32,000 bases of DNA, taken from positions 780,001-812,000 of the forward strand of contig JBAZVE010000001.1 of assembly GCA_041661045.1 (NCBI GenBank), written 5' to 3'. This stretch comes from Candidatus Saccharimonadota bacterium. Lineage in GTDB: Bacteria; Patescibacteriota; Gracilibacteria; UBA1369; 2-02-FULL-48-14. Positions 4,419-32,000 of the stretch are shown one piece after another (within the stretch, counting starts at the first letter, position 1; every line of letters starts with the position of its first letter). The translations under genes and the position numbers were made by a program. A model generated the notes under the pieces. It worked only from the letters and a program-made list of their open reading frames with translations, was not told the origin of the DNA and searched no databases.

Positions 4419-4495
4419 TGGTCGGAGTGGCGGGACTTGAACCCACGACCTCGGCGTTCCGAACGCCGCGCGCTAGCCAACTGCGCTACACCCCG
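4419..4495 (-). tRNA. tRNA-Pro (anticodon CGG), CCA encoded
   Basis: The reverse complement folds by hand as a cloverleaf. Acceptor CGGGGTG/CACTCCG; D arm GCGC/GCGC; anticodon stem CGGCG/CGCCG; anticodon loop TTCGGAA; T arm GTGGG-TTCAAGT-CCCGC; discriminator A followed by CCA. 77 nt. Confidence 0.9.
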
Positions 4496-5704: not shown

Positions 5705-6209
5705 GGTGTTTAAAGTGTTTACGGAGTTCTTTCATGGCCCGGTTGAGCCGTACGGAGACTAAATTTGGACTGATCCCTAGAATCTCGGCGGTTTGGTTCA
5801 AGGGGAGGTCTTGCAGATAATGGAGGGTGAGGACTTCGCGGTATTCTTCTTTCAGGAGGTCTAGACTCTTGAGCGCTTCTTTGGCATCCAGCTGATCTTT
5901 CATTTGCTTGCTGTGGTCTTCTCCGGGTTCCAGTCCCGCTTCCACAAGATCTTCGAGGGAAGCTGCTTTTTTGGATCCGGGGCGACGACTGTGGTCGATG
6001 ATGAGGTTGGTCGCAATCTTGTAGAGCAGCGCTCTTAGATTTTCGATGTCTCCTTCGCCCGTTTCCCCATAATGCTTCCAGGCTTTCATGAACGATTCTT
6101 GCATGAGCTCCTTGGCCAGCTCCCTGTCGTAGACTCGGATGAAGCAGTGTCTAAAGATGGCATCCGCATACTTGTCGTACGCCTCGGCAAACTTCTCTTG
6201 AGTCGACAT
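5691..6209 (-). CDS. ECF-type RNA polymerase sigma-70 family factor
   Basis: 172 aa. Region 2 resembles 'DAIFRHCFIRVYDRELAKELMQESFMKAW'. Region 4 HTH is 'LNQTAEILGISPNLVSVRLNRAMKELR'. Confidence 0.85.
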   Translation of the reverse strand: MSTQEKFAEAYDKYADAIFRHCFIRVYDRELAKELMQESFMKAWKHYGETGEGDIENLRALLYKIATNLIIDHSRRPGSKKAASLEDLVEAGLEPGEDHSKQMKDQLDAKEALKSLDLLKEEYREVLTLHYLQDLPLNQTAEILGISPNLVSVRLNRAMKELRKHFKHHERT

Positions 6210-9533: not shown

Positions 9534-9610
9534 TGGTCGGAGTGGCGGGACTTGAACCCACGACCTCTTGGACCCCATCCAAGCGCGCTAGCCAACTGCG
9601 CTACACCCCG
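9534..9610 (-). tRNA. tRNA-Pro (anticodon GGG), CCA encoded
   Basis: Same acceptor, D and T arms as the tRNA at 4419-4495. Anticodon stem CTTGG/CCAAG with loop ATGGGGT, giving anticodon GGG and G37. 77 nt. Confidence 0.9.
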
Positions 9611-27243: not shown

Positions 27244-28119
27244 ATGAAAAACTCTGCTCCCGCTCTTTCGTTCAAAGGACTTTCCAAAATCTATTCCAAT
27301 GGCGTGCACGCCTTGGAGAATATTAATCTTGAAATCGAACAAGGAGATTTTTTTGCGCTCTTGGGACCCAATGGGGCGGGCAAAACCACTTTGATCGGAG
27401 TGATTGCGGGGCTTGTGGAAAAAACGGATGGGGAAGTGCGTATTTATGGATTGGAAAGGGAAAAGCATGCGTCCGCCCTTAAACAACGGATTGGTTTGGT
27501 CCCTCAGGAATTCAATTTTAATATTTTTGAAAAGGTTTTGGACATTGTGGTGACTCAAGCGGGATACTTTGGTATTCCGCACAAAGAGGCCATGAACCGT
27601 GCGGAAAAAATTCTTGGTGATTTGGGACTGTGGGACAAACGAAACACACCTTCACGCATGCTTTCTGGCGGGATGAAACGCCGTTTGCTCATTGCCCGAG
27701 CTTTGATGCATGATCCGGATCTCCTCATTTTGGACGAGCCCACCGCCGGGGTGGATGTTGAACTTCGTCATGGCATGTGGAAATATTTGAAAGACTTGAA
27801 TGAGAGTGGAAAAACCATTGTGCTCACCACGCATTATTTGGAAGAAGCGGAAAAGTTGAGTCGAAGGGTGGCCATTATTCAAGCCGGAAAAATCATTCGC
27901 GAGGGGAATGTAAAAGCCTTGATTGGAGCCATGGAGAAAAAAACCTATATCTTTTCTTTTGGTGGAGGTAAAGAGGAAGAAGTGGTGCTTGGCTCAAAAG
28001 ATTCTTTGGTGTCCTTGGTGGAGAAATTTAAGGCGGAAGGAAAGGACATTTTAGATATTCGGCCCAAAATGAATCCTTTGGAAGAACTCTTTTTAGATCT
28101 CTTAAAAACAGAATCATGA
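27244..28119 (+). CDS. ABC transporter ATP-binding protein (ABC-2 exporter type)
   Basis: Walker A 'GPNGAGKTT', signature 'LSGGMKRRL', Walker B 'LLILDEPTAGVD'. Confidence 0.9.
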   Translation: MKNSAPALSFKGLSKIYSNGVHALENINLEIEQGDFFALLGPNGAGKTTLIGVIAGLVEKTDGEVRIYGLEREKHASALKQRIGLVPQEFNFNIFEKVLDIVVTQAGYFGIPHKEAMNRAEKILGDLGLWDKRNTPSRMLSGGMKRRLLIARALMHDPDLLILDEPTAGVDVELRHGMWKYLKDLNESGKTIVLTTHYLEEAEKLSRRVAIIQAGKIIREGNVKALIGAMEKKTYIFSFGGGKEEEVVLGSKDSLVSLVEKFKAEGKDILDIRPKMNPLEELFLDLLKTES

Positions 28120-28889
28120 ATTTAAAAGGTCAATGGATTGCCTTCACCACTATTGTGCGAAAAGAAGTGACCCGTTTCATGCGCATTTGGGTGCAAACGC
28201 TTTTGCCTCCAGTTATCAATCAAATTCTTTACTTTATTATTTTTGGAGCTTTCATTGGGGCACAAATTCGTGAACTGAATGGGATTCCCTACGCGTCTTT
28301 TATTGTGCCCGGGCTTATTATGATGGCGGTTATTAGCAATTCCTTCTCCAATGTGGTGAGTTCCTTTTTTGGCACCAAGTTTATGCACAGCGTGGAAGAG
28401 CTGATGGTGTCTCCCACAAAAAATGCGGTGATTTTGCTTGGTTATAGTGTGGGGGGGATGCTGAGAGGAATTTTGATTGGGCTCATTGTCTTTTTGGTTT
28501 CTTCGTTTTTCACACCCATTTCTTTGGATCATCCTTTTGTTGCGATTCTTTTTGCGGTGCTTTGTTCCGCTCTATTTTCTTTTGCCGGATTTTTGAACGC
28601 CCTCTTTGCCAAAAAATTTGACGATGTCAGCGTGTTCCCGACTTTTGTGCTCACTCCGCTCACTTATTTGGGAGGTGTATTTTATTCCATTGATGCGCTC
28701 CCTCCTTTTTGGCAGACCATCTCCAAATTCAATCCCATCGTTTATATTGTGGATGGATTCCGCTACGGTTTCTTTGGATTCAGTGAAATGAATGTTTGGG
28801 CAAGTCTCGCCGTTTTATGCGTCTTCACCTTGGCTCTTTTCTTCCTCAACCTTCATCTTTTGAATCGTGGAACGGGACTGAAGAGTTAG
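28116..28889 (+). CDS. ABC-2 type transporter permease
   Basis: 257 aa with 6 hydrophobic segments. 4-nt ATGA overlap with the ATPase gene. Typical size and topology for ABC-2 permeases. Confidence 0.75.
   Translation: MNLKGQWIAFTTIVRKEVTRFMRIWVQTLLPPVINQILYFIIFGAFIGAQIRELNGIPYASFIVPGLIMMAVISNSFSNVVSSFFGTKFMHSVEELMVSPTKNAVILLGYSVGGMLRGILIGLIVFLVSSFFTPISLDHPFVAILFAVLCSALFSFAGFLNALFAKKFDDVSVFPTFVLTPLTYLGGVFYSIDALPPFWQTISKFNPIVYIVDGFRYGFFGFSEMNVWASLAVLCVFTLALFFLNLHLLNRGTGLKS
28882..28889. repeat. left copy of the 8-bp target-site duplication AGAGTTAG
   Basis: Identical octamer at 29133-29140. Both copies directly abut the terminal inverted repeats. Confidence 0.75.
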
Positions 28890-29132
28890 GGTACTGCTCA
28901 CAGACCTTGGACTCTAGAACTTTTCTGAGAGCGCCCTTCCTCGGAGCGGGCCCCGGAAGCGCTTCGCTTTCCGCCCGGCTTCGTCAGGCCCCTCCCAGAA
29001 AAGTTCACCACTAAGACTGTGACACTTACAACACTGGGGATGGAGGGCCAGGTGTTTTGAAGACAACATAAAGGCTCCCGTTGTCTGAAAGATACCTGGC
29101 CCTCTCAAAGCTGCAGTGTTGTGAGCAGTACC
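28890..29132. mobile_element. 243-bp non-autonomous MITE-like element
   Basis: GGTACTGCTCACA (28890-28902) is the perfect reverse complement of TGTGAGCAGTACC (29120-29132). Flanked by the 8-bp direct repeat AGAGTTAG. No credible ORF inside. Additional internal hairpins are present. Confidence 0.75.
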
Positions 29133-29140
29133 AGAGTTAG
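29133..29140. repeat. right copy of the 8-bp target-site duplication AGAGTTAG
   Basis: Identical to 28882-28889 and abuts the right terminal inverted repeat. Confidence 0.75.
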
Positions 29141-29177
29141 TCCTAGTCAGCAGCGATGAAAGGTGTATACTCAGTTC

Positions 29178-29501
29178 ATGAAAGCTTTGAGTTTGTTTCT
29201 GGTTTTGACCCTTTCCCTGGGTGCGTTTTGTCCCATGAGTTTGGGTATGGATGATATGAATCATGGGGGAGCGATGGAGCACGAGGGATGGGCTGAAGAG
29301 GATTGTTTGACTGGTGAGTGTCTTGTGGGCATGAATGATGAAGAGCCCCTTTTGGCTTTGAGCGGATATACGGTTGTTCCAGCTTTGCCCGCGCAAGATT
29401 TTGAAAGCACGGTTCCTTGGGCCGTAGGAGAACTTTTTTCATCTGTGGCCCCGCCCTTGGTCAAAATATCGCCGACCAAAACCATTGTGCTCCGGCTCTA
29501 G
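29178..29501 (+). CDS. small secreted protein with a Met/His-rich motif (putative metal-binding)
   Basis: Signal peptide MKALSLFLVLTLSLGAF followed by 'MDDMNHGGAMEHEGW'. First gene of the copper cluster. The start is either the ATG at 29178 or the GTG at 29163. TATACT at 29165-29170 lies 7 nt upstream of the ATG. Confidence 0.5.
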   Translation: MKALSLFLVLTLSLGAFCPMSLGMDDMNHGGAMEHEGWAEEDCLTGECLVGMNDEEPLLALSGYTVVPALPAQDFESTVPWAVGELFSSVAPPLVKISPTKTIVLRL

Positions 29502-29540
29502 AATGAGAATAGCGGTTTGTTATTCTTAATTCTTTTTGAT

Positions 29541-30896
29541 ATGGACAATAAGGAAAATTTTTATGTTAAAGGCATGACCTGCGCCAGCTGTGAGCTTTTG
29601 ATTGAACGAAAGCTTAAAAAGGTGCCGGGAGTGCTCAGTGTGCACTCCAATTATAGGAGTGGATTCACGGTGGTGAAGACGGACTCAGAGAATCCTCCCT
29701 CTTCCGCCGCCCTCGAAGCGGCCATTGAAGAAGCCGGATATTCACTCACGGAGAAATCCATGCAGGCTTTGGAGGGGAAGGACCAGAAGTGGCTTGAAAT
29801 TGGAGCCTGTTTGGTTTTGATTTTTGCTCTTTATAAAGTCTTGCAGGGTTTTGACTTCTTCTCTTTTAGCGCGAGTGCGTCAGGCCTTGCGGACTTGGGT
29901 GGTGTGTTTGTACTCGGTCTTGTGGCGGGAACTTCCAGTTGTTTGGCGGTGACGGGTGGGCTCTTGCTCAGCATGGCGGCCAAACACAACGAACTGAACC
30001 CCACAGCTACGCGTTGGCAAAAATTCAAACCGCTGCTTTCTTTTAACGGAGGGCGATTGATTTCCTACTTCTTTTTGGGTGGACTGGTTGGTTTGCTCGG
30101 GCAATCTCTTACTCTCAGTCCCTCTGTGACGGGTGTCCTTAATATTGTGGTGGCCCTGCTCATGTTCTTTTTGGCACTCTCCATTTTAAAGATTCTCCCC
30201 AAGAATCATTTTATTGCACGACCGCCCAAGTGGTTCACCCATTGGATTGCCGGACTTTCTGAGCATCCGCATCCTTTTGCACCGCTGCTTTTGGGGGCGC
30301 TGACCTTCTTTTTACCCTGCGGCTTCACGCAATCTTTACAGATTTCCGCTTTGGCCTCCGGCAGTTTTGTGGAAGGAGCTTTGACGCTGTTTGTGTTTGC
30401 CTTGGGGACTTTGCCGGCTTTGCTCGGCATCAGTGCAATCTCTTCTTATGCCAAAGGCCGAACCGCTCGACTTTTTCTACGATTTTCCGGGACGCTTGTC
30501 CTGGTTTTGGCTCTTTTCAACTTGAAAAGCGGACTGGTGCTCAGTGGCGTGGACATGAGTGCTTTTTTGCCCCAGTCCAGTGTGGAAGAACAGGAAAATG
30601 CCGTGACGATGGTGGATGGAGTTCAAGTCATTCACTTGCAGGCGTCTGCGTATGGATACTCCCCAAGCTCGGTGACGATTGCCGCCGGTACCCCCACACG
30701 AATTGAAGTGGAGTCTTTGGACAATCTTTATGGCTGTGCGGCTGCGATCACGGTACCGAAGTTTGGTTTTGGGGAATATTTGAGCCCCGGCACCACCATT
30801 ACGCTCGGGTTCATTGAAGATCCTCAAGAAGATTTCATCATCACCTGCTCCATGGGCATGGTGAGCACTAATGTTAAAGTTATTTCTAATCTTTAA
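29541..30896 (+). CDS. three-domain fusion: N-terminal HMA metal-binding domain, UreH-like/DsbD_2-type membrane domain, C-terminal cupredoxin-like domain
   Basis: HMA 'GMTCASCELLIERKLKKVPGV'. The polytopic core has 'GTSSCLAVTGG' and 'FFLPCGFTQSL' motifs. The C-terminal beta-domain 'YSPSSVTIAAGTPTRIEVES…YGCAAAITVPKF…FIITCSMGMVSTNVKVI' resembles the cupredoxin_1 pattern. Confidence 0.75.
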   Translation: MDNKENFYVKGMTCASCELLIERKLKKVPGVLSVHSNYRSGFTVVKTDSENPPSSAALEAAIEEAGYSLTEKSMQALEGKDQKWLEIGACLVLIFALYKVLQGFDFFSFSASASGLADLGGVFVLGLVAGTSSCLAVTGGLLLSMAAKHNELNPTATRWQKFKPLLSFNGGRLISYFFLGGLVGLLGQSLTLSPSVTGVLNIVVALLMFFLALSILKILPKNHFIARPPKWFTHWIAGLSEHPHPFAPLLLGALTFFLPCGFTQSLQISALASGSFVEGALTLFVFALGTLPALLGISAISSYAKGRTARLFLRFSGTLVLVLALFNLKSGLVLSGVDMSAFLPQSSVEEQENAVTMVDGVQVIHLQASAYGYSPSSVTIAAGTPTRIEVESLDNLYGCAAAITVPKFGFGEYLSPGTTITLGFIEDPQEDFIITCSMGMVSTNVKVISNL

Positions 30897-30907
30897 ACTT
30901 TTTTATT

Positions 30908-31123
30908 ATGAAAACAACAGTATCTATTCCCGGCATGCACTGTAACTCGTGCGCCACGACGGTTAAAGAAGTGAGCAGTGATTTCCCGGCGATCCAAACC
31001 GTTGAAGTGAATTTGGAGACGAAGGTGGTCTCCGTGGAACACGACGAAAACTTTGATTTGGCCGCGTGGACGGAGGAAATTGAAGCTTTGGGAGAGGAGT
31101 ACCGTGTGGAGTCCCATTCTTAA
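30908..31123 (+). CDS. copZ: CopZ-like heavy-metal-associated (HMA) metallochaperone
   Basis: 71 aa with 'GMHCNSCATTVKE' (MxCxxC), in a ferredoxin-like HMA-sized protein directly upstream of copA. Confidence 0.8.
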   Translation: MKTTVSIPGMHCNSCATTVKEVSSDFPAIQTVEVNLETKVVSVEHDENFDLAAWTEEIEALGEEYRVESHS

Positions 31124-31132
31124 CCCATTTTT

Positions 31133-32000
31133 ATGAAGGATCGATTGCTTCTTTCTATTGATGGGATGCACTGCAGCAGTTGTGCGGCTTTGATCACTAG
31201 AAAACTAAAAAAAACGCCGGGCGTTGAGGAAGCCAATGTTAACTTTGCTTCGGCGCGCGCGAGGATTGAATTTGATTCTGATAAGGTGCAAGTGGAGGGG
31301 CTTTTATCGGCGGTTAAGGCCGCCGGTTACAAGGCTACTGTGGCGGATGAGAAGGATAGGGATGCCGAAAAAAAACGAGCGGAAAAGGAAATGAAAATGT
31401 ATAAAAAGAAATTTTTATTCGCCTTGGTCTTGAGTTTGCCCATGCTTTATTCCATGTTTGATCCGCGGGCTTCCGTGCTCTCCTTCTTTTTGGCCACACC
31501 CATTCAGTTTTGGCTTGGAGCCGGATTTTATCGGTCGGCTTGGTCCACTTTAAAGATGAAGTCCTTCAACATGGACAGTTTGATTGTGATTGGGACTTCG
31601 ACCGCTTATTTTTATAGTGTTTATCAGTTTTTATCGGGGGCAGAAGAACTTTATTTTGAAGTCGCGGCTTTGCTTATTACTTTTGTGCTTTTTGGTAAAT
31701 GGTTGGAATCCAAGGCCAAAGGTAAGACGGGAGAAGCCATACAAAAACTCATGGGGATGCAGGCCAAGACCGCGCGGGTTTTGCGTGAAGGAGTAGCCGT
31801 GGATATTCCTGTTGAAGAAGTGCTTGTGGGGGATATTGTTTTGGTTCGTCCCGGTGAAAAAATCCCTGTGGATGGAGTGATTGTTAAGGGCAGCTCTTCG
31901 GTGGATGAATCCATGCTCACGGGAGAAAGTATTCCTGTCGAAAAAAATCCGGAGTCCAAAGTTTTTGGAGCTACCATGAATGGTCACGGAAGTTTTGAAT
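31133..32000 (+). CDS. copA: copper-translocating P1B-type ATPase CopA, 5' part (runs off the window)
   Basis: ATG at 31133. Not in the ORF track because there is no stop before the window end. N-terminal HMA '[21 protein letters not shown]', TM helices, '[23 protein letters not shown]', and actuator motif '[11 protein letters not shown]'. Confidence 0.9.

Follow-up and report, generated by a model that had tools for sequence, protein, structure and literature searches.

The 3' end of an ABC-2 permease gene and a downstream copper module are separated in this genome by a segment that carries inverted repeats near both of its ends. Is this segment a transposed element, as had been proposed from the sequence (below, the original prediction), or a structured RNA that belongs to one of the two flanking operons, and has it altered the transcription of the copper genes? 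The window, i.e. the whole stretch of 32,000 nt that contains the locus, was analysed together with neighbouring DNA of the same genome and with related loci.

Termini, target-site duplication and base composition

The element and its insertion site are delimited by the following features.

28116-28889, + strand: ABC-2 type transporter permease (PF01061, 3.4e-37), whose stop codon lies inside the left copy of the duplicated octamer
28882-28889: left copy of the target-site duplication, AGAGTTAG; native sequence, namely bases 2 and 3 of a Lys codon, a Ser codon and the TAG stop of the permease
28890-28902: left terminal inverted repeat, GGTACTGCTCACA, with a tip of the GGnnnTG type; pairs with the right repeat at 13 of 13 positions
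29120-29132: right terminal inverted repeat, TGTGAGCAGTACC; pairs with the left repeat at 13 of 13 positions
29133-29140: right copy of the target-site duplication, AGAGTTAG; the extra copy arising from the insertion

The perfect 13-bp inverted repeats and the 8-bp duplication of the original prediction were both recovered. The octamers directly adjoin the two repeats and leave 243 bp between them. Complementarity of the termini is perfect up to 13 bp, followed by scattered matches only, and exact matches to the repeat occur in the window at the two termini and nowhere else. A perfect 13-nt inverted repeat is by itself unremarkable: one was observed within 500 nt, compared to an expectation of 0.27 per shuffled window. 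It is the adjoining exact 8-mer that makes the configuration non-random. An exact abutting 8-mer repeat arises by chance with a probability of approximately 4^-8 (about 1.5e-5), and multiplied by the shuffle count this puts the two features together at about 4e-6 expected per window. From the window and neighbouring Logan contigs, 48.7 kb of the source genome (3.7% of 1,317 kb) were assembled and scanned for any perfect inverted repeat (11 nt or more) that is directly flanked by a direct repeat (5 nt or more). The 243-bp element was the sole return of this generic scan.

The interior had been described as GC-rich and as devoid of a credible open reading frame (ORF). Indeed, none of the frames contains an ORF with a start codon, and the G+C content of the element is 55.6% compared to 47.7% for the window, which suggests a foreign or separately evolving sequence. 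The six frames were additionally compared as a pseudo-protein query with 5.8 billion protein clusters (E up to 1), a search aimed at spurious ORFs called across other copies of the element; it gave no match.

The insertion site in the permease gene and in related loci

The permease ORF ends with AAG AGT TAG, and its last codon and stop are supplied by the left octamer, in agreement with the original prediction. The insertion leaves its reading frame intact. In relatives, the permease genes end at the same stop codon position with AAGAATTAG, CGCAATTAA or AAGAACTAA; the encoded C-terminus is ...G-L-K/R-N-stop in these proteins versus ...G-L-K-S-stop here (10 loci). This shared stop position in all relatives identifies the left AGAGTTAG as native coding sequence. 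A native left octamer and an added right one match the prediction for a target-site duplication. Removal of the element and one octamer leaves 37 nt (29141-29177) in front of the ATG at 29178, as had been calculated before, and the reconstructed empty site reads ...GGGACTGAAGAGTTAG/TCCTAGTCAGCAGC... An identical copy of the locus is present on a Logan contig from SRR18595301. In NCBI, the permease has the accession MFA6024336.1 and a neighbouring protein the accession MFA6024338.1.

At the permease, the element is absent from all 10 related loci (permease protein 74-81% identical), where the next gene follows after 0-140 nt and differs between loci. Nor does it precede the conserved copper module in any of six related loci (77-86% identity), where the upstream neighbours differ and the upstream gaps are short. 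Searches of 15 related loci (142 kb) with blastn and nhmmer returned nothing. No exact empty site exists among the relatives examined, because none of them has the permease-to-copper junction. The original prediction had named, as the outcome that would point to a conserved structured RNA, the same sequence with covarying substitutions at orthologous loci. This was tested, and the element was absent from every related locus; with all 16 of them lacking it, no covariation can be counted.

The interval between the ABC-2 permease (or the AcrB-like gene) and YajQ is variable, as is evident from a comparison of the window (28889-31200) with L002, L005, L007, L009, L011 and L012. Depending on the relative, it is occupied by the copper module, by a class-A beta-lactamase-like gene, or by an ECF sigma factor and a putative anti-sigma factor. 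The insertion marks this interval as a variable spot, in which the cargo differs between relatives. The genes upstream of the element code for an AcrB-like protein, an ABC ATPase and the ABC-2 permease. In most of the permease relatives examined (L002, L003, L005-L009), an erythromycin-esterase gene lies upstream of that for the ABC ATPase; the window has no such gene. The TGA stop of the ATPase overlaps the permease start as ATGA (28116-28119), and the ATPase has the same length, 291 aa, as in the relatives. It follows from this overlap and the matching length that this metagenome-assembled genome, which is labelled Gracilibacteria, reads TGA as stop (standard code) and not as glycine (code 25). 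A toxin-antitoxin pair of the HepT-like/nucleotidyltransferase (MNT) type is located about 5 kb upstream of the window (L034 4817-5433).

Folding of the interior

Inverted-repeat and folding analysis revealed two large hairpins between the termini.

28917-29006: hairpin A, GC-rich, about 35 bp in three stacked helices (28917-37/28986-29006, 28942-51/28973-83 and 28955-61/28965-71)
29026-29124: hairpin B, about 38 bp, with the helices 29026-39/29111-24 and 29041-67/29080-107; contains a tandem G.A/A.G mismatch

The internal hairpin named in the original prediction is present with arms at 29043-29067 and 29080-29104; the equally large hairpin A had been overlooked. In the overall fold, the terminal repeats close the two long hairpins into a three-way structure. 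The base of hairpin B competes with the inner half of the right repeat, and in the minimum-energy fold the pairing of the two termini is limited to their outer 8 bp. Their inner CACA/TGTG segments pair instead with internal look-alikes at 29018-29023 and 29026-29031. The + strand, which has the sense orientation of the two neighbouring operons, folds with an energy of -129 kcal/mol (z = -9.15), 76% of its bases are paired, and none of 200 shuffled sequences was as stable. The minus-strand fold is weaker (z = -6.07). Folded by itself, the element reaches -127.1 kcal/mol on the + strand and -116.9 kcal/mol on the - strand, with seven and three G.U pairs, respectively. In a single sequence, this strand asymmetry is at most a hint at selection on the RNA level, and the G.U difference is both insignificant for one sequence and biased by the folding algorithm.

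Could the element be a structured RNA that has never been mobile? One would then have to assume a lineage-specific non-coding RNA gene or a cis-regulatory RNA, either a 3' element of the ABC-2 operon or a leader of the copper operon, with the terminal repeats as closing helix and the octamer repeat as a coincidence. The strength of the fold, the better folding and the larger number of G.U pairs of the + strand, and the tandem mismatch in hairpin B are in line with this assumption. However, the element matches no Rfam family at the gathering score, and permissive thresholds (E up to 10) gave only generic noise of the microRNA-hairpin type. Moreover, there is neither conservation nor covariation at the orthologous permease and copper-module loci, no promoter-like or terminator-like signal is present in or at the element, and the assumption leaves the exact abutting 8-mer, whose left copy belongs to the permease gene, to a chance of about 1.5e-5. 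We therefore consider an immobile RNA very unlikely. The native left octamer, the absence from relatives and the missing Rfam match argue instead for a lineage-specific insertion with a target-site duplication.

The layout also resembles that of retron RNAs (msr-msd), in which complementary a1 and a2 segments at the ends, with a G after the 5' arm, enclose internal stem-loops. The element has complementary ends of 13 nt, its 5' arm is immediately followed by a G, and long hairpins lie in between. It was rejected as an orphan retron-like RNA because neither the window nor the flanking DNA encodes a reverse transcriptase (Pfam and gene lists; 48.7 kb). In addition, no Rfam retron family was matched and the 8-bp duplication would be left unexplained, which makes this origin extremely improbable. 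ARAGORN found no tRNA in the element. The only tRNA genes of the window are two tRNA-Pro genes on the minus strand (4419-4495 and 9534-9610) with the anticodons CGG and GGG. They are 5.1 kb apart, share 86% identity over 81 nt including their flanks, and are surrounded by ORFs without Pfam matches.

A transposed element, too, has to account for the fold. Two fused ends of an insertion sequence (IS) would be expected to yield a much less structured interior, and this counts against a miniature inverted-repeat transposable element (MITE). A combination of both properties is conceivable, namely a mobile cassette that is spread by a DDE transposase and carries a functional Y-shaped RNA, the hairpins of which are under selection as + strand RNA. 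This seems quite unlikely; if true, the cassette would be a portable module for RNA processing, stabilisation or insulation in a genome of the candidate phyla radiation (CPR), and not inert selfish DNA.

Search for further copies and for a transposase

The original prediction had stated that the window contains no transposase. A Pfam search of the ORFs of the window indeed found none, and the same applies to the 48.7 kb of the source genome (Pfam and gene lists), which include an extension of 9.8 kb upstream. This stretch contains a single copy of the element and, with up to two mismatches, no other terminus-like site. By our own estimate, one copy in 48.7 kb excludes only very high copy numbers, roughly above 80.

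DNA collections were searched with patterns derived from the termini. A pattern of 12+12 nt for both ends with a gap of 203-233 nt had no match in the genome collection, and a degenerate 23-nt pattern for either end had none in the metagenome and viral collections. Since these patterns match the window itself and still gave zero matches, the source genome is absent from the collections, which therefore say nothing on its copy number. The gapped pattern was not matched in the viral collection either. There was no match among plasmids, and those among phages were chance matches of 26-31 nt at E = 0.8. Every match that was obtained turned out to be false, and the genome, metagenome, viral, plasmid and phage collections hence contributed no true relative of the element.

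The false matches of the looser patterns are of two kinds. A gapped 11+11-nt pattern had three matches in the metagenome collection, all of which are located on snap-back palindromic contigs with unrelated interiors. These JGI contigs (L018 1700-2583, L019 1701-2599 and L020 6147-6389) contain near-perfect palindromes with arms of hundreds of bases, which extend from 118 to more than 400 nt past the matched 11-mers, and are most likely snap-back assembly artefacts. Contigs of this type yield false positives in any pattern search of the form repeat, gap, inverted repeat. The 13 matches of a one-sided 21-nt pattern in the genome collection are without exception internal to long ORFs, and a partner terminus is missing from each locus. 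Several of them encode '...CEQY...' and were judged to be coincidental coding matches. Among them, the Acidobacteriota contigs L024, L025, L028, L029 and L032 share a conserved coding stretch with the same 19-21 nt as the left end of the element; its frame, ...KVCEQYRGPVASIMK..., was translated for L024 and L029 only, and the match to the element is coincidental.

A single copy in 48.7 kb and the lack of relatives in the collections searched are in agreement with a remnant that formed in situ: a full-length IS would have produced the 8-bp duplication on landing, and its interior would have been deleted afterwards; the miniature form would never have been mobilised and would be single-copy. The terminal repeats and the duplication are explained equally well by this course of events. 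In contrast, the interior does not look like decayed coding sequence. No similarity to a transposase or another protein was detected in any of its six frames, and it consists of two near-perfect long hairpins with a higher G+C content; the body is not a leftover transposase gene. Furthermore, the perfect repeats and the perfect duplication suggest a recent event, which leaves little time for the complete erosion of an ORF. An origin as in-situ remnant is therefore unlikely, and a miniature element remains the preferred interpretation.

The copper module and its promoter

The copper module downstream of the element codes for a secreted protein of 107 aa, an HMA-DsbD_2-cupredoxin protein, a CopZ-like protein and a P-type ATPase. 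Its start comprises two features.

29144-29171, + strand: promoter-like sequence TAGTCA-16-TATACT, separated from the right copy of the duplication by 3 nt; the only such site in the region
29178-29501, + strand: first gene of the copper module

The -10 box of the promoter-like signal ends 6 nt before the ATG at 29178. A similar arrangement occurs in relatives: L011, the closest one without the element, has TTTACA-17-TATGCT, the end of which is likewise 6 nt away from the ATG (5845-5880), and L014 has GGTGTATACT-N6-ATG. Judged from these motifs, the copper operon seems to have a core promoter of its own, which is located outside the element and was left intact by the insertion; its transcript is possibly leaderless.

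According to the original prediction, the insertion may have re-wired transcription into the copper genes by means of an outward promoter. This part found no support. Candidates for an outward or hybrid promoter or for a terminator provided by the element were looked for on both strands, and no promoter-like or terminator-like site was found inside it. Given the promoter-like signal of the copper operon just outside the element, there is no evidence for re-wiring. A conserved leader RNA of the copper operon was rejected as well, as relatives with the same module lack the element. For annotation, this means that the apparent 'intergenic region' of about 290 nt is an insertion, and that no leader or riboswitch of the copper operon should be annotated there.

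The first copper gene encodes a small secreted protein of 107-112 aa without a Pfam family, which has a signal peptide with an FCPM motif and a C-terminus of the form ...PTKT/NIVLRL/C (here ...PTKTIVLRL). It is conserved at 29178-29501 of the window and in L011 (5880-6206), L014 (7624-7962) and L016 (284-685), and in relatives it is always located directly upstream of the HMA-DsbD_2-cupredoxin gene. Its context suggests that this protein may be an undescribed component of copper handling.

A probable miniature transposon at the end of the permease gene

Taken together, the locus harbours a real insertion of an unclassified, small, non-autonomous element of the DDE type; MITEs as such are known. 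Its body is made up of two long hairpins, with the terminal repeats as closing helix. The small size, the absence of a transposase ORF, the terminal inverted repeats and a target-site duplication with one pre-existing copy are characteristics of a MITE, and the element is probably a 243-bp miniature non-autonomous DNA transposon that was inserted at the end of the permease gene by DDE-type transposition. MITEs in the generic sense also occur in several copies per genome with differing flanks and have a cognate autonomous IS with the same ends; the 48.7 kb covered here contain one copy and no transposase.

The following course of events is plausible. A DDE-type transposase that is presumably encoded elsewhere would have recognised both GGTACTGCTCACA termini, and the GG tip, G7 and the 8-bp duplication point to an enzyme of the IS6/IS26, IS1 or IS1595 type. 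It would have opened the target AGAGTTAG, the last eight nucleotides of the ABC-2 permease gene, with a stagger of 8 bp and joined the element to the cut ends; gap repair would then have duplicated the octamer. The permease would have remained unchanged because the left octamer copy keeps the original Lys-Ser-stop codons, and the spacer between its stop and the first copper gene would have grown from 37 to 288 nt. If transcribed as 3' tail of the ABC-2 operon, the element should form a very stable three-way structure. The consequence is most likely neutral, or a modest effect on the stability of the 3' end of the upstream transcript or on read-through, of the kind reported for other MITEs of bacteria.

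An insertion of this kind is an ordinary event, and its interest is modest: what distinguishes the element is its unusually strong folding and that no other copy was found. It indicates that DDE-type transposition was recently active in a streamlined CPR genome of 1.3 Mb. Small non-autonomous elements are hardly described in this group; a full-text literature search for MITEs in combination with the group gave nothing related. If more copies exist, the structured body would be a test case for selected RNA structures in bacterial MITEs.

Comparison with known transposable elements

The ends of the element were compared with three transposase families. The 14-bp end consensus of IS6/IS26 is GGTTCTGTTGCAAA, with G1, G2 and G7 nearly invariant and G10 highly conserved; recorded duplications have a length of 8 bp, and GGnnnTG ends are common to this family and IS1 (PMC6807381). 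The end motifs 'cTGTt' and 'caaa' and an 8-bp duplication are also given for this family (PMC7986276), and its MITEs of 227 and 336 bp are listed in ISfinder as MITEBth2 and MITEHarch3 (PMC6807381, PMC7986276). The element shares with these MITEs a similar size, the lack of an ORF, short perfect terminal repeats and the 8-bp duplication. Its tip GGTACTG contains G1, G2 and G7 and agrees with the consensus GGTTCTG in six of seven positions, the mismatch being at a position called variable (PMC6807381). The motif 'cTGTt' appears as CTGCT and 'caaa' as CACA. In contrast, the conserved G10 is a C, and the inner half of the terminus diverges; the whole terminus matches GGTTCTGTTGCAAA in 8 of 14 positions ungapped, or in 10 of 13 with one base deleted. 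Further differences are the lack of an IS6-type transposase within 48.7 kb, the CPR host and the strongly structured interior.

IS1 generates duplications of 8 or 9 bp (PMC12428005). The element has the same GGnnnTG tip and, with 8 bp, a fitting duplication length. Its terminus matches 9 of 13 positions of the sequence that we take to be the left end of IS1, GGTGATGCTGCCA. The repeats of IS1 are imperfect, about 30 bp long, and bound by InsA/InsAB', whereas the perfect complementarity of the element ends at 13 bp, with scattered matches further in, and no gene of the InsA/InsB type is located within 48.7 kb. Members of the IS1595 family, which includes the ISPna2 and IS1016 groups, usually make 8-bp duplications, and the related eukaryotic superfamily Merlin has conserved GG termini (PMC8101967). 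The element has the duplication length of IS1595 and a GG tip as in Merlin; it differs in that no DDE_Tnp_IS1595 protein is encoded within 48.7 kb.

The loose resemblance to IS1 ends that had been suggested originally thus holds in part: the GGnnnTG tip and the 8-bp duplication fit this family, but not this family alone. The tip is common to IS1 and IS6/IS26, and IS1595 also duplicates 8 bp, so that the transposase family is ambiguous. Compared at this level, the ends are compatible with IS6/IS26, IS1 and IS1595 and diagnostic of none.

With regard to its architecture, the element can be compared with the Correia elements of Neisseria, the enterobacterial ERIC and the pneumococcal RUP, which are structured intergenic MITEs of bacteria. 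These are small, ORF-less and co-transcribed with their neighbours, and their stable RNA folds can alter mRNA processing or stability. They generate TA or other short duplications, and one hairpin extends across the whole element. The element described here has no detected sequence similarity to them and differs in its 8-bp duplication and in its three-way layout of a closing helix and two independent hairpins. It has in common with them that it is small, ORF-less and located between genes, and these families would be the model for its way of working if it has any effect.
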